NCBI GenBank assembly: GCA_964016885.1
Contig: OZ024740.1
Span: forward strand, 59,148,001-59,212,000
DNA from: Eledone cirrhosa
Taxonomy: Eukaryota
Direction of reading: 5' to 3'
Length of the DNA stretch: 64,000 nt
How positions within the stretch are numbered: position 1 is the first letter of the stretch; each line of letters opens with the position of its first letter. The position numbers were made by a program, and so were the translations under genes. A model generated the notes under the pieces. That model was not told the origin of the DNA. It ran no database searches and saw only the letters and a list, made by a program, of their open reading frames with translations. Shown in pieces: positions 1 through 53,237 of this stretch.

Positions 1-336
1 GCTGTTTGTATGCATGCATCATACAGTCTGCCTTTCATCTTGAGGAAAAAACCTTTTGCAGCTAGCAGTGGCAGTAACAACCTGAACTTCATCCATCCCG
101 TTCCTACCCTGGTTACTGTACTTTCTGAACACCCACCTCCACTGCTAATTTGGTCACTTAGGTAGCAGAAGCTGTCTACTGTTTCTACAGAGTTTGGTAA
201 TGCTTGCTTCCTGTGGCTGTTTGCTGCTTACTGTCCAGGGGAAGCTGCTACATGTAAAGCCTACATTCCTAACTAAGCTTCTTAAGATCCCACTACATCT
301 CTTGTGTACCCATAGATTGAATTTGGGGCAAAGAAT

Positions 337-340
<4 letters not shown>
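1..340 (-). mobile_element. RTE-clade LINE fragment (PHD finger to RT thumb region)
   Basis: Antisense of the ILCPKF..VHKRC..SFCYLSDQISSGGGCSES..LYDAC segment found in the longer RTE copies; ends at a (TA)n tract. Confidence 0.85.
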
Positions 341-412
<72 letters not shown>

Positions 413-580
413 GTGTGTGTGTGTGTCGGATGGTAGCTAAGATGCTTCCATAGGCGGTATGCCGGTTGAGCATTCTATGCTCTTACAGAGCAGAGTATGA
501 TAAAATGAAACAATTGTAACACACAATAAATTGAGTTCAGATGCATCACTGATTTTACGATTTATATTATATATATATAT

Positions 581-728
581 TTGGTGTTAGGAAGGGCATC
601 CAGCCATAGAAAACCTGCCAGACAGTCCTATACGAGCGAGACGACCAATCTTGCCTTAAGTGGGACAATTCCCGTCTAAACCCATGCTAGTGAGGAAGAT
701 AGACGTTAAACGTTGATGATGATGATGA
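581..728 (+). mobile_element. RTE-type 3' tail fragment ending in (GAT)n
   Basis: ggtgttaggaagggcatccagc motif, aacccatgctag...gacgttaaacg and a (GAT)n tail, as at 46620-46779. Confidence 0.75.
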
Positions 729-748
729 TATATATATATATATATATA

Positions 749-774
749 GCTCTGCCGTCGGGGTTAAACATTTT

Positions 775-846
<72 letters not shown>

Positions 847-901
847 AAAATGTTTAACCCCGACGACAGAGCTCAAGCCGTTTCGACAGCTATTTCTGGA
901 C
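749..901. repeat. Inverted repeat (749-778 / 843-872) around (TA)n; pLTR-like fragment with a hammerhead 3' half
   Basis: gctctgccgtcggggttaaacattttccta pairs with taggaaaatgtttaaccccgacgacagagc; related to the palindromes at 57449 and 60209. Confidence 0.7.
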
Positions 902-919
902 TATATATATGATATATAT

Positions 920-1065
920 ATCATCATCACCGTTTTATGTCTGTTCTTCCACGCTAGCATGGGTTAGATGGGTTGTCCTGTTTTGTGCAGTGTCCGGTCA
1001 GCTGACCTTGTCTTGCTCATACGGGAACTGATTCTGGCTGGATTTCTACAGCTGGATGCACTTCC
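920..1065 (-). mobile_element. RTE-type 3' tail fragment
   Basis: (CAT)n followed by ccacgctagcatgggttaga...ctacagctggatgc, matching the reverse complement of RTE 3' UTRs. Confidence 0.75.
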
Positions 1066-1199
1066 TATCATTCAAAACGGCTTGAGCTCTGGAAAAATTT
1101 TCCTATATATATATATATATCATATATACATCTTATATATATCATATATATATCATTTATATATATTATATGTATATATCATATATATATCATATACAT

Positions 1200-1235
<36 letters not shown>

Positions 1236-1355
1236 TATAGACATAGAATATTCGAAAATATTCTGTATGTTTATAATAAACATTTTGAAGACCTAATCGC
1301 TATAGAATAGAATACGTCACGTATTACAATTAGATTCTCGATAAAAGCAAGGGAA

Positions 1356-1398
1356 GTAATCTACGCGTTTCATTCTCGTAAGAAATCATCAGGACTAC
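1356..1398 (-). ncRNA. Type I hammerhead ribozyme (unit 1)
   Basis: Minus strand GUAGUC CUGAUGA UUUCU uacg AGAAU GAAA CGCG UA GAUUAC: 6-bp stem I, intact core, palindromic stem III, GUA site. Confidence 0.85.
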
Positions 1399-1665
1399 AT
1401 ATCCAGTGCTTTTATCGAGAATGACACAGCTAGAGACTTATAGAATACTTAGCTGTGTACAGGAACTGGTTTGAAAGAGCGGTTGCCGGTCCGGCAGAAA
1501 TTAGAAATTGGAATAAATGCTCTGAAATAGCGATATATATGTGAATATAGACATAGAATATTCGAAAATATTCTGTATGTTTATAATAAACATTTTGAAG
1601 ACCTAATCGCTATAGAATAGAATACGTCACGTATTACAATTAGATTCTCGATAAAAGCAAGGGAA

Positions 1666-1708
1666 GTAATCTACGCGTTTCATTCTCGTAAGAAATCATC
1701 AGGACTAC
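1666..1708 (-). ncRNA. Type I hammerhead ribozyme (unit 2)
   Basis: Same sequence as 1356-1398, shifted by 310 bp. Confidence 0.85.
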
Positions 1709-1975
1709 ATATCCAGTGCTTTTATCGAGAATGACACAGCTAGAGACTTATAGAATACTTAGCTGTGTACAGGAACTGGTTTGAAAGAGCGGTTGCCGGT
1801 CCGGCAGAAATTAGAAATTGGAATAAATGCTCTGAAATAGCGATATATATGTGAATATAGACATAGAATATTCGAAAATATTCTGTATGTTTATAATAAA
1901 CATTTTGAAGACCTAATCGCTATAGAATAGAATACGTCACGTATTACAATTAGATTCTCGATAAAAGCAAGGGAA

Positions 1976-2018
1976 GTAATCTACGCGTTTCATTCTCGTA
2001 AGAAATCATCAGGACTAC
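1976..2018 (-). ncRNA. Type I hammerhead ribozyme (unit 3)
   Basis: Same sequence as 1356-1398, shifted by 620 bp. Confidence 0.85.
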
Positions 2019-2409
2019 ATATCCAGTGCTTTTATCGAGAATGACACAGCTAGAGACTTATAGAATACTTAGCTGTGTACAGGAACTGGTTTGAAAGAGC
2101 GGTTGCCGGTCCGGCAGAAATTAGAAATTGGAATAAATGCTCTGAAATAGCGATATATATGTGAATATAGACATAGAATATTCGAAAATATATATATATA
2201 TGTATATCATATATATATATTTTGTTAACAGACTTTTAAATCTGATTTCATATCTTTTATCTAGAACATCTCTATCTGACGAACGATCCACGCGTATATT
2301 ATTATCGTCTGTGATCCAGAAGCCTTTGGTAGTTATATTTTGTGTTGTTCACTTTCTAATTATATATATATATATATCACATATATATATCATATGTATA
2401 TAAATATCT

Positions 2410-2452
<43 letters not shown>

Positions 2453-2462
2453 AATATATATA

Positions 2463-2547
<85 letters not shown>

Positions 2548-2602
2548 ATATTTATATCTTATATATATATGATATATATATATCATCGGAATAACTGGTC
2601 AG

Positions 2603-2707
2603 TTATTCCGATGATTTGATTAGGCATACACTGTATTTAAGATTGAGTGACACAACTTCAAGTGATTAGCAATCTTTAGACATCCTAATCAATGACACTG
2701 TAAATAA
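2603..2707 (+). ncRNA. Hammerhead-like motif, variant or degenerate core, long stem II
   Basis: UUAUU CCGAUGA U UUGAUUAGG...CCUAAUCAA U GACA CUG UA AAUAA. Confidence 0.55.
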
Positions 2708-2748
2708 AAACCGTTTTGTTATTCTTCACTCTTATGTATATATATATA

Positions 2749-5736
2749 TCTTATATATAAAGTGAAGTCGGGCGTTGTTTGTTTGTTTGATGTCCCTAAC
2801 TTGCATGCTACACCTTTCATTCGATTTTCATGAAACTTGACACATATATAAAACTCGACCCGTAGATTGGAATAGGCTACTTTATAATCGGGCTCCCAGA
2901 AGCCAAAAATCGATATTTTCAAAAATCGTACGATTTCGATGAAACTCGACGCAAGTGTGTATTTTGATCCGGGGATGAACATGGGCTACATTAAATTTTC
3001 GAAAAAAATCGATAATTGGATCACCAGAGGCAAAAATCGATATTTACGAAATTTGTCCGATTCCAATGATATTTGACGTAGGTAAGTATTTTGGTGCGGG
3101 AATCAACGTGGGGTACTTGAAAGTTTTAAAAAAATCGATAATCGGACCCCCACAGGCAAAAATCTGGCAACCGAAAAACGCCATTCTTCTTGCTTCCATT
3201 TGTCGCGACTCCCGCCATGCAAAAGACGTTCAATCTATCAGGATTATCCACCGTAAGTCTCTTTAAATTAACGCTCACCATATTCAGCAAACTTTTTATG
3301 CCGATTCTTCCATTTCTTATATAAGGACTATCAAGACTATACCGCTGCGCATCATCCTGTATTGCGCCCAGTCTTCTCAAGCGATCATCGAGCCTCCATG
3401 CGCTCTCTTCATTCCCGTGGTCCCACAACCGTAGCGTAATGAGGCATCCGTCAACCCCTTCCCTCTCCTTTCCCTGCACGCCCTGTCAGCCACCATCCAC
3501 TCCCCAACCCTTTCCACTGCCTAGGCATGGAAGTCTTGAGAGACCAAGTCGCATCCCTGCCACCGTCAACTCCTGTCCTCTCCGTTCCCTGCACGCCGTC
3601 GTCCCACTGCATTGTCATGCATCACCATGCTACATCAATGCTCTGTCAGCCACCATCTCTTCCTCGGCCCTTTCTTTTGCCTGACTGCTGTGCTCCTTCA
3701 AGACTCCCATGGCAATCTATGCCACATCAATTCCTTGCCACCCACTTAAATGTCATCAGCATGGCTTGTTGTTGCCCCATTTAACCACCGATTTTCGCAT
3801 GCTAAACACAATACAAACGTGCACGATAGTCCATGGTAAATCATTTTAATTACATGTTCATCATGCTAAGCAAAGGATGAATAGCAACTCTTTCATTTCT
3901 CCTGACATGCCTTTCTGTCAATTATGGCCGAGAAGCATCCTGTGTAGCATCGCGTCTTCTCAAGCGATCAGCGTGCCTTCCACTGTCCTCATAATTGACT
4001 CACAACGCCGCATCTATTCCCTGCGACGCCTCTAAACATCATCAGCATGGCTTATTTTTCTGCCGCGTTTAACCGGTCCTCATTCTAGGCCATAAACAAC
4101 AAAACCGCACGATGATGCTGCGTAAGTCTATTTAAATTAATGGTCAACATGTTCAGTAAAACAATTGTACCAATTCTTCCTCTTCACCTCCAAGGCATCT
4201 TAGAGGTCGGGATTCGCAATTTCTACGATTTCAATATTGACACAACAGTCCGTCAGGTTTTTCGGCACATGTTGCTGGAATATCAACGTGATAGGAATAT
4301 CAACGTGATTTTCACTTAATTTGTAAGTGTTCAGTCCTCCGTATGCTTTTATATTTTATTGATATAACACCGACTACAATCATCTAACTTCACTTTGCAG
4401 GCTTGATGCGAATCACAAGGAAAACAATCCTTTGAAATACAACCCCATCAAATTCTTTGGTCTACCTAGATTTCAATGGCTATATCCTTTGCTTTTGTAC
4501 GGTTGTACATTTGACAATGTCGCAAAACATTATTCCACTTGATTCTTACCTTTCAGTTATGAATTGGGCAGTGCCTTAAAATCCCGGTTTATTTGCGTGC
4601 AATTTTTTTGGTATCTTATGAATGGAGAATCGAAACCCTTTTTCTCATAACCTGACACATGCGTTACACATGCTCCATGGATGTTTGTGGACTATTTTTT
4701 TCAAAATACCAATATCACAGATTGGAGCACAAAAAGAAACGTTTGTTCTTCATTTATTTCGGTTAAAGCATCCTGCTGGAATTTAGCGCAGACCCGTTTA
4801 AATCCAGCGCCTTATAACACCGAGTGTAACCGGGTACACCAGCTAGAAAGACAAATGGAAACATTGTTTCCTCGGTCCTATTTGACGAAAGTCGATTTAG
4901 TTCCACAACAAATTAACAAACCATACTTGAAGACACGTTGAGGCTGTTGCAAAGGGCAATAACCCTAGACACAATTTTGATCAACTTTTTTTCACCTATA
5001 CCAAATTTACGGGGACAGGATTTCAGCTACTCAAATCTACTTCAGAGGTCACGCATTCATGTAAAAAATCAATAAAACTGAAGCTGGCGTTCGACTTTGC
5101 GCAAAAAACATGGGAAAACTTTCTACAGGAACGTCCGATTTTCTTGAAAACTGTCGCAAAAGACTCGCCATTATGCCGCGGTTCAGATAAAGTCCCTTTT
5201 ATTTTTTCTTCTGCACATGTGAGCGCAAAAATTATAAAATAAAAAAAAAAATACTGTGAAAAAATCGACTTTTTCACCCTGCTTTAAAAATCAACTGAAA
5301 ATTCAATTTCAAGTGAATTTGACTTCCGTCAGTCGTGCAAAGAACAATTTCAACGATACACTGTGAACCTACAATTGATCCATTATTTATACTCACGGTG
5401 GATTGGCAGTATTGGTAGAGGGTCGGACGCCATGCTTTCCAGCATAGTTATGTCCCTTTACGATCTGAGTTCAAATCCCGCCGAGGTTGACTTTGCCTTT
5501 CATCCTTACGGGGTAGATAAAATAAAGTACCAGTAATGCACTGGATAATTGCTGGCCTTGTGCCTAAAGTAGAAACAATTATTTATACTCAATTACACAC
5601 ATGCGTCTACTAACCTCTGTTTTTTTCCTTGAAGTTCGAAGGTTTTTGCACCTGTGATGCGCGGGAAGTAACTTTCACACATTTTAACAACAGAGCAAAG
5701 GTCGACTTACCCGGCAACGCCGGTTACTTCTGGTAG

Positions 5737-11312: not shown

Positions 11313-11354
11313 TATATATATAAGTGTTTTATAGCTTACTTTCAGCAATTTTTA

Positions 11355-11918
11355 ATGGGAAGTACTATTAAAATGTCTTACTCTACGACTCCTAACCTTG
11401 CACATAACATCACAGCTTCAAATTTAGCTAAACTACCTAGCCGTAGGAACACGTGCAACCCTGTAGTTAGTACTTACTGTAATTGTAGGAATCGGGCTGA
11501 TTGCTCCCTATCCGGGAAATGCCTCTCTAGTAACATTGTCTACAAATGTAAGGTTGTAACACCCACGTCCCGTAGGGCCTACATAGGGTTAACCGCCAAT
11601 AGATTCAAGCAGCGTCTTTACATGCATACCCATTCTTTTCGTTACCCTCTAAGAAGGAATATGACGTCACTTTCAGCTTATATCTGGAGTCTAAAAGACA
11701 ACCACACCCAATATAAGTTACACTGGGAGATCCTAGCTAGGGCTAGATCGTATAACGGAAATAAAAGACCATGTGACCTCTGCGCCGCTGAGGCCCTGGA
11801 AATACTCTACGCCACAGACCACATCTTAAACAAAAAATCTGAGGCAATTTCAGCTTGTAAACATAAATTGCACAAAACTTTCCTGTATTACAGCCCCACG
11901 TTATACCCTAACGGATAG
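11355..11918 (+). CDS. PLE GIY-YIG endonuclease domain (partial)
   Basis: CNCRNRADC linker, IVYKC...AYIGLT..FKQR, CDLC..E, LNKKSE. Confidence 0.85.
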   Translation: MGSTIKMSYSTTPNLAHNITASNLAKLPSRRNTCNPVVSTYCNCRNRADCSLSGKCLSSNIVYKCKVVTPTSRRAYIGLTANRFKQRLYMHTHSFRYPLRRNMTSLSAYIWSLKDNHTQYKLHWEILARARSYNGNKRPCDLCAAEALEILYATDHILNKKSEAISACKHKLHKTFLYYSPTLYPNG

Positions 11919-13125: not shown

Positions 13126-13680
13126 AACGGAAAAAATGAAACGAAATTTCATTTCTCACTCTTAGTACGTCTGTTACTTAAATATAAGTATGTACACGTA
13201 CATACATATATGTATACAGACGTACAGTAGTATGTATATATATATATACATACATGCACATATATATATATATGTACGTATGGATTCACCGAACATTTAT
13301 TATAATGCTCGGTGTGTTTGTAAACAAACATCCCGTATTAAGCCGTAGTGTCTAGCAACCATCGTTGCTCGTTTGTTCAACACTGACAAAGGAGCGCTGT
13401 ACTAGTTTCAAGCTTATTAGCTATCGTCAGCAACGTATACCTTCCTGTCAGATTGTTGAACGTATATACTTACCTTATGCATATTAACGGCTGAGTAGCC
13501 CAATTTGCATATCGAGTGGGTTAATCGGCCGGGTGCACCGAAAACGATAAACGGAAAAAATGAAACGAAATTTCATTTCCAACTCTTAGTACGGCTGTTA
13601 CTTAAATATAAGTATGTACACGTACATACATATATGTATACAGACGTACAGTAGTATGTATATATATATACATACATGTA
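13125..13680 (-). mobile_element. 424-bp retrozyme-like element, 1.3 tandem units
   Basis: aaacggaaaaaatgaaacg recurs at 13125 and 13549; HHR at 13395; paralogues at 30763 and 49490. Confidence 0.8.
13395..13435 (-). ncRNA. Type I hammerhead
   Basis: CGUUG CUGACGA U AGCU aaua AGCU U GAAA CUAG UA CAGCG. Confidence 0.85.
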
Positions 13681-22212: not shown

Positions 22213-22721
22213 TCAATATACAAACCTTAACTTTACATTATTTTTCTCTTCGTTAATTTTCAAATTCTTTTAATTTATACATTATCTTCCAACGGTTTTT
22301 CAACCTCTCTATGTAAAACAATATATTTTTCTCAGTTATAAAAGCTATCTCTCTCTCTCTCTATCACCCATCTCTCCTCCTATCTCATCCTTCCTCATTA
22401 TACTCCTCCCCCTCCACTTTTTACTCTCATCTCCTCCTCTTTTTCATCCTTTCCACCCCCCCCCCTCTCAAAAAAATGTTTTCCCCAATATCACACATCA
22501 ATCTAAAACTACTTTTCATATGTTGATTTAAAACTGCACTATCCACAAGTGTTTTTTAACCTTCATATCATGTCTTCCTATTTTATCTGATGAAAACACA
22601 AATGTTATTGCATGATGATATTTGTTTTTGAAATGCGCATAATAAAATACATGGAACTCTTTTAACCATCTTTTGATCTTATATATTATGTATGGCTGAA
22701 ACAGGTAAAAGAGTAAAAGAG

Positions 22722-22762
<41 letters not shown>

Positions 22763-22771
22763 CTTGTTGGG

Positions 22772-24436
22772 TTGTTCCTCCTTAATGAACTATATGCTAC
22801 CTTCCCGCACCTTATAGGTGGACTGTATCGTGATGATACATTGTTTGTAATTAACTCTAGCACCAACAATGTAGAACATAATAAGAAGAAGCTTTATAAG
22901 TTTTTTAAAAGCTATAACCTTTCGATCACGATAGATAGAAATGATAGAGCGGTTAACTTTTTAGATGTGACTTTGGACTTGGTCACTAATAGTTTTAAAC
23001 CCTTCCATAAGCCTAATGAAATACTTTCTTATGTTAGTCCCAATTCTAACCACCCCAAGTCTATGATAAGCTCTATAATTAAGGCTGTATCTAATAGGAT
23101 TTCCACATTTTCTAAGGACGTAGGAACTTTTAATGAACACGCGGAGTACTATAATAAGGCCCTAGCAAATTCAGGTTACTCTAGTAAAATACACTATAAT
23201 AATAGTAACCTTAGAAAATCTCCGCTTACTTTTAATAATAATAACATAATATCACATAACATGGCCATGAATGGGACTAGCAGACATAGTAACCGTAAAA
23301 ATTATATGGGTGTATCTGAACCCATCCATAAGTTAAACCACCGGACTCGTAATAGTGAATATAATACCTCTAGGAAACAAGTAGAACCCCCTGAGCGCTC
23401 ACACATTGGTGATAATTTTGCTGGATCTTATTCTGATAATGTTGCTCCTACTGATCCTATCATTGGCCCCAATCCGTTTGATGGGATTCCGGGCAGCAGA
23501 AGATCTACTGGAGGTAGAAACTGTAATAGACTTAATGAAATTTCGGCTGATTCTACGAATGCGGTTTTAACCAATCCTTGTAGTAACCCTAGTCTCGATG
23601 GCGGGATATTTGATAATGGTAGAGTCCGTAAGAATAAAAATAGAAGGCGATTAAATACTTATTTTAACCCGCCATATAATCAGGAAGTATCAACTAATAT
23701 CCCTAGGTCTTTCTTCTCCATCTTAGAGAAAAATTTCCCCCCTTCTCATAAATACCATAGTATTTTTAATAAAAATGTTATTAAACTTTCATTCTCTACC
23801 ACCCCTAATATTAGTTCTCATTTAGCTAGCACTAATAATAGGAAAATTAGGGATGGATTCTCCTCTCTACATACTACTAGTCTGAACAGATCTGGCAATG
23901 CATTACCACCGGAACAGTCCTTATCTAATAGCAATCCTACGTGTAATGCATCACCACTTGAGCCAACCAATAACACCCGGAAGTGCAATTGTAGAGTGAG
24001 TGCTAACTGCCCTTTAAATGGTAACTGCCTTTCTAAGAACATTGTCTATGCTTGCGAAGTTATAACTAATTCCTCTAATAGAACTTATATAGGCTCCACA
24101 TCTAACTCTTTTAAGACTAGATTTAACTCCCATATCTCCAATTTCAAACATGTTAGGTTTAAGAATTCCACTTCTTTAGCACATTATATCTGGGATCTTA
24201 AGGGAGCTAAGATACCATATAGCCTTAACTGGCGTTTAGTAGCACGCTCTAACCACCTTTCTACACATACTAGGTTTTGTAATCTCTGCATCCTTGAGAC
24301 ACACTATATAATTTTCTCTAGCGTACCCTTACTTAATAGAAAGTCTGAGATATTCTCTTCTTGCCCCCACGCTATTTCTAATTCATACTTTTATTATAAA
24401 CCTAAACGTTCTAGTAGTACAAATTGTACCCATTAG
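22772..24436 (+). CDS. PLE reverse transcriptase (from the YRDD motif) + GIY-YIG endonuclease
   Basis: GLYRDD, VNFLDVTLDL, SNHP, CNCRVSANC, IVY..TYIGST, CNLC, LLNRKSE. Confidence 0.9.
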   Translation: MFLLNELYATFPHLIGGLYRDDTLFVINSSTNNVEHNKKKLYKFFKSYNLSITIDRNDRAVNFLDVTLDLVTNSFKPFHKPNEILSYVSPNSNHPKSMISSIIKAVSNRISTFSKDVGTFNEHAEYYNKALANSGYSSKIHYNNSNLRKSPLTFNNNNIISHNMAMNGTSRHSNRKNYMGVSEPIHKLNHRTRNSEYNTSRKQVEPPERSHIGDNFAGSYSDNVAPTDPIIGPNPFDGIPGSRRSTGGRNCNRLNEISADSTNAVLTNPCSNPSLDGGIFDNGRVRKNKNRRRLNTYFNPPYNQEVSTNIPRSFFSILEKNFPPSHKYHSIFNKNVIKLSFSTTPNISSHLASTNNRKIRDGFSSLHTTSLNRSGNALPPEQSLSNSNPTCNASPLEPTNNTRKCNCRVSANCPLNGNCLSKNIVYACEVITNSSNRTYIGSTSNSFKTRFNSHISNFKHVRFKNSTSLAHYIWDLKGAKIPYSLNWRLVARSNHLSTHTRFCNLCILETHYIIFSSVPLLNRKSEIFSSCPHAISNSYFYYKPKRSSSTNCTH

Positions 24437-26267: not shown

Positions 26268-26305
26268 GCCCTGATGAGTCCTTAATAGGACGAAACATTG
26301 TCGGC
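26268..26305 (+). ncRNA. Minimal type I hammerhead at the PLE 3' end
   Basis: GCC CUGAUGA GUCC uuaaua GGAC GAAA CAUUG UC GGC, then AAUAAA at 26307. Confidence 0.88.
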
Positions 26306-33143: not shown

Positions 33144-34724
33144 ATTAGTAATCTTATAATTGTAGTTTTACATCCAGTTCAGTGGAAAGAAAGACCAATA
33201 TTTGTCGACTAGTATCATTTGTGACATTTAAACCTAAATATATATAAAAAAATATATATGTACAAATCTAACTTTCTGAATCCTAAAACATACTCAAAAT
33301 GAGTAAAATATATAATGCATGAATGATTTACGGTTCAATTATAACCGGTTATCTTATAAGTTATATATCCAAATTATATATTTAAAACAAAAACAAATAT
33401 ATAAGGATCCCAATCTAAATTATATATATCTAAAATAATCCAAAGGTGTGCATACATGTTAACAAATAATATGTTTATATACCTAAACAGGACCCTTTAG
33501 TCTAACATTAATTCTATCATAAATGAATAGAAAATAAAACATTATTAAGGTTTTATAATCTGTTATAACGTTTTAGGTACACAGTTGATAAGAGACGTCA
33601 AAAGTTAAAACCTGTTTATTTAGTGTTTTTTCCTAACTTTTTGCGAGGCTTGGAATGTAGACAAAGCTTTATGAAGGCAGTTTGAGAATAATTCACTTTT
33701 TTTGTTAATTAAGTTTTCATAATTAGTAATTATTAATAGGGTCTCCATGGTTGCAATTAGGTGATATTGACGAATTCGAGTCAATTCTACTATTACATAG
33801 CTTCGTCCAAAAAATCGAGTATTTAAAATTTTTGTCTTTTAATGACCATATAAGTTGTGATAAAGAAGTCGAAGACTGCCTATTAGGGTTCGAAAAAGAG
33901 CATTTATGATTCCCAAATCTCGATTTAAATGTCGAAGAAGTTGCCCCTATATAGTTGTATGTGATGTTATTTGCTTTTACGGTGCATTTATACACCAAAT
34001 TGCTATCCAGACAATTATTTTGCAGAGGGCAATCTGGTTTATTTCTACAATTACATTTCAATTTATTATTATTATAATTTATATTAACACTATTATTACT
34101 TCGAAATGTTCTATTGATAGTGCTTATATTGCTGTTAATGTTATTCATAGTATCAATATTGTTAGTGTTATTATATTCATTATTGTTAAATGTATGCTGA
34201 TTATGGCTTAGAATTCTACTATTTAATTTAGCGATGTTTTGGGCCATATTCATAGTTGTAGAATAAGAAAGCTTAATTGTGTGTCTATTAATTATGGAAC
34301 GGTATTTATGTTGAATAGAGAAGGAATTATCTAAAGCTTTAAAGAATAGATTACCGAGTGGTGTTTTTATTGATACAGAAGCAGGGGGGGGGGCATATAA
34401 CTGATTTAGTTCTGTTTTTTTCCCCCGATTTATTCACAGTACTGGTGTTTGAATTTTATTTTTTAGAATTTCGTTTATACATGTCAGTTATATTATTATT
34501 TTTATCAGGATTATAATTCAAATTATTATTGTCTATATATTCTATGTTATTTTTATAACCTACCTTTCTTAGCGCATGATTGTAATATCCTGCTTTTTCA
34601 TCAAATATGGATTTATTAGCAGATATTCTAGTTATGCATTAGTTATATATGATATATCATATATATATATAATATATATGATATATAATATATATATGAT
34701 ATATATATATGATATATAATAATT

Positions 34725-36602: not shown

Positions 36603-39600
36603 ATCATCATCATCATCATCATCACCGTTTTACGTCCGTTCTTCCACGCTAGCATGGGTTAGACGGGTTGTCCTGTTGTGGGCAGTGTCTGGTCGGCTGA
36701 CCATGCCTTGCTCATACAGGAACTGATCTGGCTTGATTTCTACAGCTGGATGCCCTTCCTAACACCAACCTCATTTACAGTGAGTGCTGGGTGCTTTTTC
36801 GTGGCGCCTACACGTCCACTTTACAGTGTGGGCTGGGTGCTTTTTTGCCGTGGCACCTCCACGACCACCTTGCGGTGGGGGGGGGGGGGCATATTGTTTA
36901 TATGCTTCAGCATGTACCCATGGGAGGTCGGGTACCCTGTATTACTGCGTGACGCCAGAAGTCACGGTCGTGTGTCATTGACTTTGAGAGGTGTAGTTGG
37001 GTAAGGTCGGCTTTTATCACCTCATCCCAAGTCATCTTGGGTCTCCCCACTCCGCGGTTTCCATCAACTTCTAGTGCTCTGCACCTTTTTATGCAGCTGT
37101 CATCCTTCATACGCATCACATGTCCATACCAGCGTAACCGCCTCTCCTGCACGCAGCATTTGATTCCTCTTATGCTCAGTCTCTCTCTCAATTCATTTAT
37201 GCTTTGTCGTTCACGTATATTACTGTTACACATCCATCGGAGCATGCAGGCTTCGTTTCTCTCTAATCTACGTAAGTCTTCCACCTTCAGCGCCCAGGTC
37301 TCACTACCATGTAACATTGCTGTTTGGATACAAGCATCATACAGTCTGCCTTTTATTTTGAAGGAGAAGCCTTTTGCAGCTAGCAGTGGCAGTAGTTCCC
37401 TGAACTTCTTCCATCCCGTTCTTGCCCTAGTTATGTACTTTCTGAACACCCACCTCCGCTGCTAATTCGGTCACCTAGGTAGCAGAAGCTGTCTACTGTT
37501 TCTACAGGGCCCTCCCAGAGATTGGTGGTACTTGTTTCCTGTGGCTGTTTGCTTGCTGTTTCAGCACAGCTGCTGCATGTGAATCCTACATTCTTAATTA
37601 AGCTTCCTGAGATCCCGCTACATCTCTTGTGTACCCATTGTTTGCATTTGGGGCAAAGAATGGAGTTCCTACCTACACCTTTCCTACATACTGAGCAAGG
37701 CCATTTCCCTGAGGGGATCTGGGTTCTGTTTTCTCGTCTACTTATAAGGACCTTAGTCTTTGTCATGTTGACTTTGAGGCCCTTTCTCTCTAGTCCCTGC
37801 TTCCAGGTTTGGAATTTATTCTCTAGTTCTACCATAGATTCAGCTATGAGTGCGAGGTCATCAGCATACAGGAGTTCCCATGGGCATCCGGTCTTAAACT
37901 CCTCCGTTATTGCCTGCAGGACTATGATGAACAGGAGAGGGCTAAGAACAGAGCCCTGGTGGACCCCAACCTGTACGCTAAATTCCTCGCTATACTCATT
38001 GCCAATCCTAACTTTGCTGACTGCTCCCCTATACATGGCTTGTACCGCTTTCACAAGCCATTCATCTACTCCTAGTTTTCTAAGAGCCCACCAGATTACT
38101 GCACGTGGAACTCTGTCAAAGGCTTTCTCAAGGTCGACAAATGCCAAGTAGAGTGGCTTACTTTTAGCTAGGTACTTTTCCTGTAATTGCCTCACAAGGA
38201 AGAGCGCATCAGTGGTGCCTTTCCCTGGAACAAACCCAAATTGCATCTCGTCTATATTCACCCGGTCCCTAATCAGCTGTGCTATAACTCTTTCTGTTAC
38301 TTTCATGACCTGGTCCATCAACTTTATACCTCTATAGTTTCCTCTATCTAGTGCATCGCCTTTACCTTTGTAGCAGTTGACAATGATGCTACTGCACCAG
38401 TCTTTTGGTATGGCCCCCTCTAGTATTACCTGGTTAACGATACGTGTGGTTATAGTGTGACCTACAGACCCAGATGCCTTCAGCATCTCGGCAGCTATAC
38501 CCGATGGACCGGTTGCCTTCCCTATCTTCATATCTCTGATTGCCTTACTTACTACGCTGCCGCTGACTTGTACTGCTGGTCCCTCTATAGGGTCTACGTG
38601 GGGTAGGGTCTCTTCTTCCCATGCATTCTCCTCATTTAGTAATCTATCATAATGACTCTTCCATGCATCTTTCTTCTCAGCACTTGTGAGGGCAAGCTCA
38701 CCTTTATCATTCCGGATACACTTCTCTCCAATGACATCACAACTATCTCTGACACACTGCCTCGCAATCTTGAATACCTCCTGTTTCTGGTCCTCACGTT
38801 GTAAAACATGCTTGAATTTTCTATCCTCTGCTTCCCTCCTAGCTAAGTATACTTGTCGCCTAGCTTCCCTCTTGGTCTCTATGTAATGTACCCTGCTCCC
38901 CCCGTTCTTCCATTCTTTCCATGCCTGTCTCTTGGCCTTGACTGCTTCATCTACCTTATTGTTCCACCACCAAGTCACTCTCCTCCTGCTTGAGGTCTTA
39001 CTCCAGCCACAAACCTCATCCGTCGCCTCTAGTAAGTTATTTTTTAGGAACTCCCAGTTCTCTTCTACGTTAAATGTCTCTATCTGTTCTTCTTTACTGT
39101 CGTAGGCGTTGAGTAAAATATCTTTAAATCTGTTACTGGTTGAGGGGACTTTCAGCTTCCAGATCTTTCTTCTCCAGGTTGGCCTCTGTTTCAGGGCTCG
39201 TCTAGTTCTGACCGTGAGGTCGCTGACAACTAAGCTATGTTGGGATGTACATTCCTCACTAGGGAAGGCTTTTGTGTTTACGACCGTCCATCTGTCACGT
39301 CCTCTGATGAGGATAAAATCTAACTGACTAGAGTGCTCCCCTGATCTATAGGTGATCAGGTGGTTGTCGGGTTTTTTAAAGTTTGTGTTACATATCGACA
39401 TGTCATTGGCGTCGCAGAATTCTAGAAGTCTGAATCCTTCCTCATTCCTTGTGCCAACTCCATGGCCTCCATGTACTCTATTGAAGCCGTCGCAGTGTTT
39501 ACCTACGTGTCCGTTAAAATCTCCTGCAATGATTAGGAAGTCCTTGTCGTCTGTTAGAGCAGTAGTGTGTATTAGGGACTCGTAAAACCTATCCTTAAGT

Positions 39601-40467
39601 TCGTCTGGCAGCCCCGATTGGGGTGCGTAAGCTGATATTATTGTGGTAATTGTCTTATTCAGGACTAGTCTGAGTTTAATGATTCTTGCATTTACCCTGT
39701 ACACTGAGATTACTTTATCTACCCACTTGTCAGCTAATAGTATACCTACACCACCCATCCCATCGTCATTTCCCACCCAGAAAAATTTGTAGCACTGGCT
39801 TTTTCCTACAAGGACTCTAGCAGACCCTCCTCTCCATCTAGTCTCTTGCACACAGCATACATCAACTTCCTTTCGCTCTAGCATTTCTACGATTTCTCCT
39901 GCTCTTCCTTTCATTGAGCCTACATTGATGGTACCAACTCGGAGTTTTGGGCATTTGTCGACACTCGTAGGGGAGGGTCTCTGGGTTGGCGCTTCACGTG
40001 GGTGCTTGGTAGCTCGCAGATTCATATTTCATCTATTGATTCAGAGTTGCTCGTGTATTCCCAGCTCATCCATCCCTAACGGTGGGAAAATTGAGGGCTA
40101 GAAGGACAGTGGTGGTGGGGTAATGGCAGGGTGTGTTGGGATGCGCCAGAGGAGGAGAGAGTTAGTTAGGCAGGTAGTAGCAGCAGCAGCAGTGGAAATG
40201 GCATGCTAGGTTTGATTGGTCGAATAGACTATGGTGGTGTGTGGGGGTGGGGGGGAGGGAAATTGTGAGGTAGAAACTGAGGGTCGCATGGTAAATATCC
40301 AAGTTAATACTACATCAGTAAAATTAACAATAATAACGTCATGAAAAAAAGCTACTAAGAGAAACCCTCGAAAATTTATCGCTAATACAGCAGGGAAAAT
40401 TTAACGCTAATACAGCAGGGAACATCATAATATTAACGACATGAAAAAGCTACTAAGAGAAACCCTA
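36603..40467 (-). mobile_element. Near full-length RTE LINE (subfamily A) with one frameshift
   Basis: Putative 5' UTR, APE+RT+PHD ORF 37431-40025, C-terminus 36907-37449 in another frame, 3' UTR and (GAT)n tail. Confidence 0.93.
37431..40025 (-). CDS. RTE ORF: APE endonuclease + reverse transcriptase + PHD finger (frameshifted before the C-terminus)
   Basis: VGTINV, CCVQETRW, AGDFNGHVG, SQLDFIL, NYRGI, QFGF, LYADD. Confidence 0.93.
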   Translation of the reverse strand: MNLRATKHPREAPTQRPSPTSVDKCPKLRVGTINVGSMKGRAGEIVEMLERKEVDVCCVQETRWRGGSARVLVGKSQCYKFFWVGNDDGMGGVGILLADKWVDKVISVYRVNARIIKLRLVLNKTITTIISAYAPQSGLPDELKDRFYESLIHTTALTDDKDFLIIAGDFNGHVGKHCDGFNRVHGGHGVGTRNEEGFRLLEFCDANDMSICNTNFKKPDNHLITYRSGEHSSQLDFILIRGRDRWTVVNTKAFPSEECTSQHSLVVSDLTVRTRRALKQRPTWRRKIWKLKVPSTSNRFKDILLNAYDSKEEQIETFNVEENWEFLKNNLLEATDEVCGWSKTSSRRRVTWWWNNKVDEAVKAKRQAWKEWKNGGSRVHYIETKREARRQVYLARREAEDRKFKHVLQREDQKQEVFKIARQCVRDSCDVIGEKCIRNDKGELALTSAEKKDAWKSHYDRLLNEENAWEEETLPHVDPIEGPAVQVSGSVVSKAIRDMKIGKATGPSGIAAEMLKASGSVGHTITTRIVNQVILEGAIPKDWCSSIIVNCYKGKGDALDRGNYRGIKLMDQVMKVTERVIAQLIRDRVNIDEMQFGFVPGKGTTDALFLVRQLQEKYLAKSKPLYLAFVDLEKAFDRVPRAVIWWALRKLGVDEWLVKAVQAMYRGAVSKVRIGNEYSEEFSVQVGVHQGSVLSPLLFIIVLQAITEEFKTGCPWELLYADDLALIAESMVELENKFQTWKQGLERKGLKVNMTKTKVLISRRENRTQIPSGKWPCSVCRKGVGRNSILCPKCKQWVHKRCSGISGSLIKNVGFTCSSCAETASKQPQETSTTNLWEGPVETVDSFCYLGDRISSGGGCSEST

Positions 40468-50568: not shown

Positions 50569-52050
50569 AATGAATAATAACAGGTAGACAGCATAAAAAG
50601 GTAATTTATTCCGTGTGCTTACAAGTGTTTCCACGGTGGTACTGCAGCCTAGTTCCGCTACGTGCAAATTCACAAGTATTTGCAGAACTCGAATATCCAA
50701 TGCTGTGACCACTGTTTCCTCAGAGCAGAATGGTAAATGTACAATGTAAAAACCCTTAAGTGGGGTTGTTGGGGAAGATAAAGTGGAACAGGAAGAGAGA
50801 AAAGTAGGGAAGAAGGAGAGAGAAGGAAAGATATGTAGGGGTTGGAGAAGTAGGAGAGAGTGGCTTGTAGATATCTTAATCAAAATGTTATGGTAGGGGT
50901 TTTATTGTTTACTTTTGGAGAGATGCGTAGATAGTTGAGGTCGGAATTATTTATTTCCCCAGAGGGCAGGTTCATAGATGTTGAGAGGGAGGTAGGTCAA
51001 AGGTGAGAGAGAGAGAGTGTAATGGATGTAGAGAGAGATATATAGGTAGAGAGGGCACAGATAAAGTATGTGTGGTGAGTGAACTTTTGGTTTTGTAGTA
51101 GTAATCTAGGAATTGTACTGAGTTACCATGTATAGTGATAAGCAGTGTATTGTCTTGTAGTGTGGGGGGAAGAGAAGGTTGTTAGCTAGAAAGTGGTGTT
51201 GTAGTTACGGGTTCGAATGTTAAGTTATTTTATAGTGAGAGAATTTAGCTTTTAGTTTGTGGTTGCAGTATAATGATCGTTCAATTCTATCGTTAAGTAG
51301 TTTGTTTTTGGATTTTAGTATCTAAAATAGCTCAAGGTTACATAACCTGCAGTACTTCAATCCACTCCGATATGCATTTGCGCTGGAAAGTATATCCCAT
51401 TTTAAGGTGAACTGTTGGTTGTGTTCACGGAGTTGCCAGGTCTTGTTGGCGAGCGTGGTCACAAAACGGTGATTCGGATGTTTGATTGAGAATCGATGAC
51501 GGTACCAGCGAGATTTAAACGATGTGGTGGTAGATCCGATATAATACCATTTCTGGTCGCTCGATTCAACCGTGCATTGGTAAACAATGCTGGACTTTAG
51601 GCATTCATTCTGCAATGGACATCTTTCAGGTAGATGGCAGTTACATTCTTTGTTGTGGGTAGCGGGTATACCATGGATAGGTTGTGATAGCGGTACAGGT
51701 GGGTTGTGCAATACCCGTCTCCCATTTAGTGGTTGGGAGGCAGATATTGCGTTCTGCCCATCTGTTACTAAAATGTTTTGTTTTGTAGAGTTGTTTAATT
51801 GCCTTAAGTTAAGTTTTTTTATGTATGCTTCAAGGTTTGGTGCCGTGGAGTATGATACTCTAATAGTTTTAGAGTTCAGAATTTTGCTGTACTTATGGGA
51901 ACTAGGGAAGTGTTTATTGATTAATTTAGAGAATGAAAGAGATAGTTTTGTACTAATCGAGGCATTAAAAATAGGATTATACCAGATATACTTTCTACAA
52001 CGTGATTTATTTGGTGGTGATCTTCTATTATTAGTATGTCTGGTAGTACC
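50565..52050 (-). mobile_element. 5'-truncated Penelope-like element (Naiad-like)
   Basis: ORF 51322-51711 (CNCHLPERC, IVYQC, YYIGST, CRLC); HHR at 50616. Confidence 0.85.
50616..50727 (-). ncRNA. Type I hammerhead with long stem II
   Basis: UGCU CUGAGGA AAC A GUGGU...ACCAC C GUG GAAA CACUUG UA AGCA, then AAUAAA. Confidence 0.7.
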
Positions 52051-52052
52051 GT

Positions 52053-53237
52053 GTGTGTGTATATCGTGATGACATGCTTTTACTTATACAAAGTAATAGC
52101 TGTGAACTAAATAGGAAAAGAAAACAAATTATACAATTTTTTAATTACCTTAATCTAAAAGTAGAAATAGTGAATAACCATAAAATAGTCAATTTTCTTG
52201 ACGTAACACTAAATCTCAACACATGTCTTCATTATCCATTTCACAAACTAAATGAGAACTTGAATTATGTTAATTTTAACTCTAATCACCCCAGATCTGT
52301 TAAAAATACTATAGTGAACTCTGTTCAAGAAAGAATTTCAAGAATTTCATCTAATAAAAATATATTTGATGAAAAAGCGCAGTATTACAACGAAGCGTTA
52401 GGTAGAGCTGGATATAGAAATGAAATTAAATACATTGATAATAATAATAATAAGCAAACTAACCAAAATAATAACAATTTTAATTATGGTAACAACTTTA
52501 GCAACTATAATAGAAAACATTACAATAATTCCAAAAGCCGAAAAAGAAATAGAACTAGAAACATATTATGGTTTGCTCCCCCTTTCTCACTAAATATTAA
52601 AACCCCTATTGCTAAACTATTCTTTAAAGCTCTTGACAAACGCTTCCCTAGAACACATAAATATTACTCAATTTTTAATAGACACACTATAAAATTAACT
52701 TACTCACCCACCAAAAATTTAGCACAAAATATTAATAGAATTAATAATAGAAATTTAAAACCTAACCAAAATACCAATAATAATCAAAGCAATATTCAAT
52801 TGAATAACTGTAACTGTAGAAATAAATCTAACTGTCCGTTAAATAACAACTGCTTAGCTAAAAATGTAGTGTACAATTGTAATGTTAAAACTAATTTAAA
52901 TTCATTTAACTATGTTGGTTCTACCTCTACTGAATTTAAATTTCGCTTCAATAATCATAAAAATTCTTTCACAGATCCAAACAAAAAATCTTCAACTTCG
53001 CTATCTAGCCTACTATGGGACCTAAAACGAGATAATGTTAAATATTCGATGACTTGGAATATTATTTCAGAAGCTACTCCTTTTAATTCCTCTTCAGAAA
53101 ATTGTGATCTTTGTATTGAAGAAATATTCTTTATATTAAAGTCCAAAAATTCCCTTAATTTAAGGAACAATTTATTCAGTTGCTGTAGACATAGATTGAA
53201 CTCAACGTTTAAATATAAATATAAATTTAAAATGTAG
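52053..53237 (+). CDS. PLE RT C-terminal part + GIY-YIG endonuclease
   Basis: YRDD, VNFLDVTLNL, SNHP, WFAPPFS, CNCRNKSNC, VVY..NYVGST, CDLC. Confidence 0.9.
   Translation: MCVYRDDMLLLIQSNSCELNRKRKQIIQFFNYLNLKVEIVNNHKIVNFLDVTLNLNTCLHYPFHKLNENLNYVNFNSNHPRSVKNTIVNSVQERISRISSNKNIFDEKAQYYNEALGRAGYRNEIKYIDNNNNKQTNQNNNNFNYGNNFSNYNRKHYNNSKSRKRNRTRNILWFAPPFSLNIKTPIAKLFFKALDKRFPRTHKYYSIFNRHTIKLTYSPTKNLAQNINRINNRNLKPNQNTNNNQSNIQLNNCNCRNKSNCPLNNNCLAKNVVYNCNVKTNLNSFNYVGSTSTEFKFRFNNHKNSFTDPNKKSSTSLSSLLWDLKRDNVKYSMTWNIISEATPFNSSSENCDLCIEEIFFILKSKNSLNLRNNLFSCCRHRLNSTFKYKYKFKM

Follow-up and report, generated by a model that had tools for sequence, protein, structure and literature searches.

The tandem array described here is likely to belong to a young non-LTR retrozyme of Eledone cirrhosa, designated family A, whose insertions end at two fixed sites where the RT/GIY-YIG enzyme of a Penelope-like element (PLE) would prime both strands on one RNA, probably a circle. 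Mobilisation of this retrozyme by a PLE is, taken separately, very probable. The initial annotation of the window (the whole stretch of 64,000 nucleotides analysed) had proposed a non-LTR retrozyme inserted by PLE machinery, and this proposal is now supported by dispersed copies, by selection on the hammerhead ribozyme (HHR) and by a PLE insertion signature. Every retrozyme feature that can be tested from sequence was found in family A, which appears to behave as a non-autonomous PLE whose template is a small RNA made by a ribozyme.

In the window, the family A array is one-armed and lies on the minus strand at 1232..2191, with its RNA-sense 3' end on the left; an exact 310-bp period spans 1232-2191, corresponding to 3.10 units with a GC content of 0.345. 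The annotated arrangement was confirmed: three 310-bp units followed by a fragment lie inside (AT)n, each unit carrying a type I HHR on the minus strand. Units 1 (1233..1542), 2 (1543..1852) and 3 (1853..2162), all on the minus strand, are letter-for-letter identical and are followed by a partial unit (2163..2191, minus strand), which is the 5'-truncated end at monomer position ~101 and meets (AT)n via an ATAT microhomology. The (AT)n targets, both unstranded, were delimited by a tandem-repeat scan (TRF) at 1104..1231 on the left and 2192..2220 on the right. The flanks of the array consist of (AT)n with no LTR pair, which together with a GC content below 50% agrees with a non-LTR retrozyme, and the array is non-coding, as first described, with no ORF of at least 130 aa overlapping it. 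Monomer numbering starts at the base that follows the predicted cut, position 1 being window position 1671; the predicted 310-nt monomer, from cut site to cut site, would be released and ligated from 1362..1671, and a second one from 1672-1981, both on the minus strand. The short ('S') end, with its junction to (AT)n at monomer ~129-139, is located at 1223..1233 (minus strand) and would represent a priming site; the T in place of C at 1231 indicates that the window insertion starts at or before monomer position 130. The long ('L') site corresponds to 1507 (also 1817 and 2127) and is not an end in this one-armed copy, and monomer positions 131-165, located at 1507..1541 (minus strand), form a PLE-like 'tail'. 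The window copy is a minority form, one-armed with an S end, truncated at its 5' end at ~101 and carrying no inverted arm. Elsewhere in the window, an inverted repeat of ~28 bp around a (TA)n centre was observed at 750-871 (also 883-900 and 1063-1104), and it gave spurious Rfam miRNA matches below the gathering score.

The three type I HHRs are encoded on the minus strand at 1356..1398, 1666..1708 and 1976..2018, with predicted cuts between 1362 and 1361, between 1672 and 1671, and between 1982 and 1981, respectively. CUGAUGA starts at 1392, 1702 and 2012 (minus strand), and A17 of the GUA cleavage triplet is found at 1362, 1672 and 1982. Stem I comprises 6 bp; stem II comprises 4 bp (UUCU/AGAA), is capped by a UACG loop and contains a U.U at 10.1-11.1. 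GAAA follows. Stem III is palindromic, as had been annotated, although its extent had been given as the four letters CGCG and the palindrome is of six, ACGCGU. A motif scan of both strands of the array detected the HHR on the minus strand only. Among the 22 matches returned by an Rfam search of positions 1-5000 (E <= 1) none was to a hammerhead family, and the HHR call is therefore based on the motif, the covariation and the pattern of variants.

The HHR is enclosed by a perfect 16-bp stem (1334..1422, minus strand, arms 1334-1349 with 1407-1422) that had been noticed in the sequence and is also present in the fold. Across family A and its sister families B and C, seven of the 13 pairs tested in this stem are altered on both sides, and the stem would keep both ends of a cut monomer together. 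An 8-bp hairpin just upstream of the S site (1245..1264, minus strand) is conserved, covaries across the three families and is a candidate protein-binding element. The description of the unit as highly structured held when it was folded as a circle, with an energy of -67.8 kcal/mol (z = -4.3) that was reached by 0 of 200 dinucleotide shuffles. The plus strand of the monomer circle folds equally well (z = -4.4), so fold energy alone cannot tell the strand. The stems flanking the HHR are part of the fold of lowest energy, from which 1.8 kcal/mol is needed to open the core into the stem II form. A further cost of about 5 kcal/mol for forcing the A-U pair of stem III, or for closing this stem in the monomer, marks it as very weak, in agreement with the folding as dimers that has been described for HHRs of this kind (PMC4209133). 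For Xenopus retrozyme dimers, eight of nine are reported as showing no cleavage in vitro (bioRxiv 2026.07.22.740005).

Across the 3.0 Gb genome, the exact pattern of the HHR core was matched 18,116 times (control 0), which amounts to ~5.6 Mb if each match represents one unit. Exact end patterns, whose counts are a floor, identified ends joined to (AT)n, of which 1,034 were of L type (control 0) and 1,310 of S type (control 20). At ~8.5 units per insertion, as found in the first sample (272,598 aligned bases; 104 insertions), this number of units gives an estimate of roughly 2,000 insertions. The genome-wide array search thus revealed a dispersed mobile family with more than 1,000 ends of each type, and the assembly artefact considered in the initial annotation is refuted for family A by the 18,116 exact copies of the core. 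The singleton substitution rate is as low as 4 per 10,000 bases, indicating that family A is very young, as the identity of the window copies had suggested. Beyond this genome, the runs X4, X5 and X6, of unrecorded kind and under three other organism codes, each yielded one 340-nt contig covering the whole unit; these contigs are 1-3 letters from the window, and a circle or a DNA tandem array gives the same 340-nt cycle. Contigs of this sort reveal neither ends nor strand nor level. At window position 1380, in loop II, the window has A, a minority variant in the genome too, and runs X1, X4, X5 and X6 all have T.

Twenty loci with two opposite arrays, their RNA 3' ends facing outward, were found in the first search. 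With 120 further stretches added from paired and unpaired ends, the sample reached 143 insertions, the loci being chosen by end pattern and similarity, mostly from C1, and not at random. Two arrays joined 5'-to-5' were present in 123 of the 143. Six of these two-arm insertions are cut by the locus edge; both ends are visible in the other 117, and all 117 combine one S end with one L end, with no S/S and no L/L pair. The remaining 20 insertions are one-armed (15 S and 5 L), and two of the 15 with an S end retain a trace of an L arm of <20 nt. Along 0-211 Mb of C1, which contains 79 L and 100 S ends, outward-facing end pairs less than 20 kb apart were S+L in 54 of 54 cases. The L end is at monomer position 165 (a minority at 166-172) and the S end at ~129-132, giving an offset of ~34 nt. 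The S end is written as 139 owing to an internal AUAUAUAU; however, the C at 131 is lost in 48 of 83 S junctions, and family C, with GUAUACAU at the S site, joins (AT)n mostly just before it, which places the true S site at ~129-132 and not at 139.

The arms have medians of 971 and 1,215 bp and a maximum of 8,459 bp, reaching 27 units, and the longer arm is S in 35 and L in 48 of 83 insertions. Inner junctions are found anywhere in the unit (p = 0.20), with no enrichment at the cut site (4/142) and uniform offsets (KS p = 0.99, n = 71), and the overlap at the inner junction is 0-5 nt in 51 of 71 cases. The 5' break points of the two arms lie within 30 nt of each other in 15 of 71 insertions, against 14.0 expected. 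Stretches of (AT)n of at least 4 nt flank both sides in 86 of 99 insertions. Three complex family A insertions, L032 (G000:C910), L039 and L051, show several short template jumps at the inner junction.

The majority sequences of the two arms were identical within the insertion in 94 of 108 comparisons, whereas identity between insertions was found in 815 of 12,661 cross-locus pairs (6%). Among the 43 fixed substitutions, 25 are private to one insertion, and private alleles fill every unit of both arms (25/25 in L087, 18/18 in L102 and 17/17 in L120); their fixation in all units requires a one-unit bottleneck per insertion. Singletons in the two arms gave 92 discordant versus 7 concordant calls. 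Departures from uniformity were also observed, as the arms differ from each other in L098 and L109, one unit of another haplotype is present in L037 and L039, and a variant is repeated within an arm in L060, L117 and L130. In L071 and L082 (2 of the 83 two-arm loci) both arms change allele at one and the same unit index. These mosaics cannot come from a pure monomer circle and call for an oligomeric or jointly switched template, and they strengthen the case for the same RNA and the same starting unit in both arms. The rolling-circle cDNA of a monomer circle envisaged at the outset is accordingly too strong a description for every array, given those two loci, although a monomer circle is probably the usual template. 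That both arms are primed on one RNA is highly likely.

Substitutions fixed throughout an insertion have passed through RNA, and singletons have not. Changes in the core, in stem III or in strong pairs were classed as damaging, position 131 being left out because of a junction effect. Damaging changes represent 2 of 43 fixed substitutions versus 52 of 143 singletons (p = 1.6e-5), and in the first sample 0 of 28 versus 32 of 105. This contrast shows that the folded RNA is under selection in its entirety; the core itself, which contains 0 of the 43 fixed substitutions, is too small to test alone. Common variants are located at N7, at 10.1 (U.U to A-U) and in loop II, together with G-U swaps. Separately, A>G changes (RNA sense; L031-L130, L328-L367) account for 13 of 43 fixed substitutions and 10 of 143 singletons (p = 2e-4), and the ratio of A>G to T>C is 13 to 6 in the fixed class and 10 to 26 in singletons. 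This excess could reflect A-to-I editing written into DNA; selection for G-U pairs yields the same bias.

Two older families were spotted in the flanks, B (320-324 bp; L109:4617-5420, L091:1-270 and L131-L160) and C (313-319 bp; L162:2433-2871 and L211-L235), with 2,421 and 2,720 search candidates, respectively, the best copies being 93-96% alike to the query copy. Families A, B and C form a collinear, nearly gap-free alignment with different HHR stems, in which the long stem, stems I-III and the hairpin preceding the S site are kept through compensatory changes. Both-sided changes affect 14 of 33 pairs, and 93.5% of cells are paired versus 34-48% in slid controls, a comparison that spans three lineages only. 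Where paired ends were found in B and C, among 55 loci, they were S+L in 10 of 10. Family B has a 12-nt palindromic stem III and a U3-A8 core replacing C3-G8, which is a known natural HHR variant. A short reading frame from monomer position 79 was considered and rejected, since in A it is not in the frame of B and C, and the changes are consistent with base pairing.

Other HHR repeats occur in the same genome. A short HHR element, 'D' (L107, L110, L114, L115, L122, L133, L141, L193, L196, L200 and L207), shows a near-match to family A in its core and stem II and is often a tiny two-arm palindrome in (AT)n; as a partner it was discarded, its ends (+22 and +90, 68 nt apart) and downstream sequence being unlike those of family A. 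Another HHR repeat family, unrelated to A in sequence, is found in the window at 13430(-), 30824(+) and 49619(+) and in L202; repeats of this type have a palindromic stem III, ACUAGU, and a spacing of about 480-510 bp in L202. Further HHR-like motifs lie in the window at 26271(+) and 59370(+), the latter being the motif of a 775-aa PLE family.

PLEs abound in the genome, with 10,597 GIY-YIG candidates, of which 150 were scored, and RT plus GIY-YIG was present in 6 of 7 ORFs scanned. No coding PLE sharing the sequence of the unit was detected among 50 GIY-YIG loci (30, plus 20 with long ORFs) and two further coding families (775-aa and ~860-900-aa). By analogy in age, target and geometry, the best partner candidate is a young coding PLE (L308-L327, e.g. 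G000:C4:233388813-233396014) with many intact ORFs of ~900 codons and equal scores (one at L309:1316-4015), encoding a protein with an RT together with a GIY-YIG at its C-terminus. Its copies show a median of 12 differences per 1,500 bp and none between arms (5/5 insertions). They target (AT)n, combine a long and a short end in 4 of 4 clear two-arm copies and include some tandem copies; their ends are at +122/+163 after the minimal HHR, versus +130/+165 in family A, with a tail of ~41-44 nt. The minimal HHR fits the description in PMC4209133. No significant sequence similarity was found between this PLE and families A, B and C (p = 0.25). The 775-aa PLE family (L243-L265, L296-L307) is young and 98% alike, has a U3-A8 HHR-like motif ~1.1 kb past the ORF, and family A insertions in (AT)n adjoin three of its loci. 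In the window, frames with a cysteine-rich linker and GIY-YIG-like ends are present at 11313-11918, 22709-24436, 33723-34433, 51322-52083 and 52047-53237; read by eye, these five are likely fragments of another PLE clade. An 865-aa frame at 37431-40028, with endonuclease- and RT-like parts and many broken relatives, is presumably an RTE-type LINE.

These elements can be arranged in a proposed route of insertion. Read-through of an array would produce a multimeric RNA, in which two HHRs would pair through ACGCGU and cut, and the 310-nt monomer would be ligated. A PLE dimer would bind the structured region at monomer positions 60-200 and nick both strands of (AT)n; one nick would prime cDNA at ~165 and the other at ~130, where the fixed ends are observed. 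Both RTs may then make 0.2-27 turns around one shared template, each stopping on its own, such rolling being compatible with the haplotype that the arms share, and the cDNA ends would join with the 0-5 nt of microhomology seen at the junctions, giving two 5'-to-5' arrays. Failure of one arm would leave a one-armed copy, as in the window. The strict S+L rule and the single haplotype on both arms point to twin priming on one RNA. Against it, no difference in start site between the strands was seen for the anole PLE (PMC11167929), whereas strict pairing needs one site per strand per event. A broader reading, to which we give even chances, is that obligate asymmetric twin priming is the normal mode of PLE integration, with one dimer using one RNA at sites ~34 nt apart; on a 310-nt circle both RTs would roll and write mirror arrays, and these retrozymes would be circular RNAs that form a Darwinian population, under selection for cleavage and for binding of the enzyme, with mutation perhaps by A-to-I editing.

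An unlikely alternative keeps PLE twin priming and replaces the circle by uncut linear read-through RNA, circles being a by-product or absent and the arrays growing and homogenising by unequal crossing-over, as in a non-autonomous PLE minisatellite. It would accommodate the mosaics that L071 and L082 carry in the same register on their two arms and the variants repeated within an arm of L060, L117 and L130, and the coding PLE likewise makes two-arm and tandem copies; in addition, the HHR is dispensable for insertion in vitro (PMC11167929), and this linear route has been proposed in bioRxiv 2026.07.22.740005. However, the 25 private alleles, present in all units and in both inverted arms where tested, would need a one-unit bottleneck, arms of up to 27 units show almost no heterogeneity, singletons are mostly not common to both arms (92 discordant against 7 concordant), and the inherited variants spare the catalytic core. 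Far less probable is an origin of the inverted arm by hairpin self-priming or fold-back of one cDNA or transcript, following the model in PMC3846280. Such a process would also yield arms of one haplotype, and the unit's own hairpins are found at 3 of 71 junctions (overlaps of 12, 16 and 31 nt), yet most overlaps are 0-5 nt (51/71) and the outer ends are always different fixed sites. Moreover, either arm can be the longer (35 versus 48 of 83) and the 5' break points are independent (15/71 within 30 nt, 14.0 expected), both of which argue against fold-back, so that this explanation is largely refuted.

Two further explanations were weighed. An infectious viroid-like circle with RNA-to-RNA replication and occasional endogenisation would account for the compact folded circle and for the 340-nt contigs, 1-3 letters from the window, in runs under three other organism codes. 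We regard it as improbable in the extreme, since there is one HHR, on one strand, and the same genome carries 18,116 units together with older sister families; the kind of those runs is unrecorded, and the same 340-nt cycle results when a DNA tandem array is collapsed. An ordinary satellite, or an artefact of assembly, in which an HHR-like motif arose by chance has a negligible probability. The perfect identity of the units, the missing Rfam hammerhead match and a window array whose copy number is known from the assembly alone would suit it, whereas dispersed loci in their thousands, with haplotypes particular to each locus and with fixed ends, covariation and selection, do not, and for family A it is refuted.

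Retrozymes are known elements for which PLEs have been proposed as mobilisers (PMC7229834, bioRxiv 2026.07.22.740005). Mobilisation of animal retrozymes by PLEs has been argued from shared HHRs, co-occurrence and pLTR similarity. Family A, a 310-nt repeat that encodes no protein, displays the footprint of the PLE enzyme itself, an inverted arm and a tail in (AT)n. On the origin of inverted, tailed PLE insertions, self-priming has been proposed for the inversions (PMC3846280), and two start sites have been seen in vitro for the anole PLE, which cuts both strands and extends them; these two internal start sites define the tail, and HHR cleavage was not needed for insertion (PMC11167929). Since one genome offers a 310-nt template whose start sites are mapped as well as a young PLE with an intact ORF, both the mobilisation and the mode of insertion can be tested at the bench. 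On the broader reading given above, the roughly 2,000 insertions would be genomic snapshots of single template molecules. The insertion record may prove general for animal retrozymes.

Compared with the metazoan non-LTR retrozymes of coral, mussel and axolotl (Cervera and de la Pena 2020, PMC7229834; Li et al. 2026), family A shares non-coding tandem units in the range of 150-450 bp, GC below 50%, one type I HHR per unit, a weak palindromic stem III, a structured circle and the presence of PLEs in the same genome. The U.U at the base of stem II is also found in the axolotl HHR_Amex2. Expression and circles have been shown for metazoan retrozymes and would be predicted for family A. Inverted arms, a tail and (AT)n targeting are the rule in family A; for published retrozymes, inverted arms, a tail and microsatellite targeting are absent from the main texts of PMC7229834 and bioRxiv 2026.07.22.740005. 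Our literature search returned no report of family A, of two-arm retrozyme insertions, of strict S+L pairing or of one haplotype across both arms, although supplements may show insertion structures. In Xenopus, 24 of 57 retrozyme families match known elements, with PLEs being 21 of the 22 (bioRxiv 2026.07.22.740005), whereas family A has no sequence-related coding PLE among the loci examined here.

The likeness to EN+ PLEs (Penelope/Poseidon, Neptune and Naiad; PMC8557442, PMC3846280, PMC11167929) extends to the 5'-truncated copy inverted head-to-head, the tail of 30-40 bp at one end only, the AT-rich or (TA)n targets and a first start site that has an HHR about 120-130 nt upstream. The PLE tail is described in these sources as 'optional' or 'often at one end', whereas in family A a tailed end is paired with an untailed one in 117 of 117 insertions with both ends visible. 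Unlike EN+ PLEs, the whole element is a 310-nt repeat with an HHR of canonical size and multi-turn arms, and the unit has no ORF, hence none with the RT and GIY-YIG of an autonomous PLE. Hammerhead viroids and satellites resemble family A in size, HHR and branched circle; however, family A is of one polarity and genome-encoded, with no sign of RNA-to-RNA replication, so that the term 'viroid-like' in the initial annotation suits its shape and not an element with one ribozyme on one strand. In LINE-1, twin priming occurs as an occasional side path, for which the first site is the poly(A) and the second is random. Family A is similar in having two primers on one RNA, an inverted product and microhomology at the inner junction, but here twin priming is the predominant route, its two sites being internal and fixed, and each arm can exceed the length of the template.
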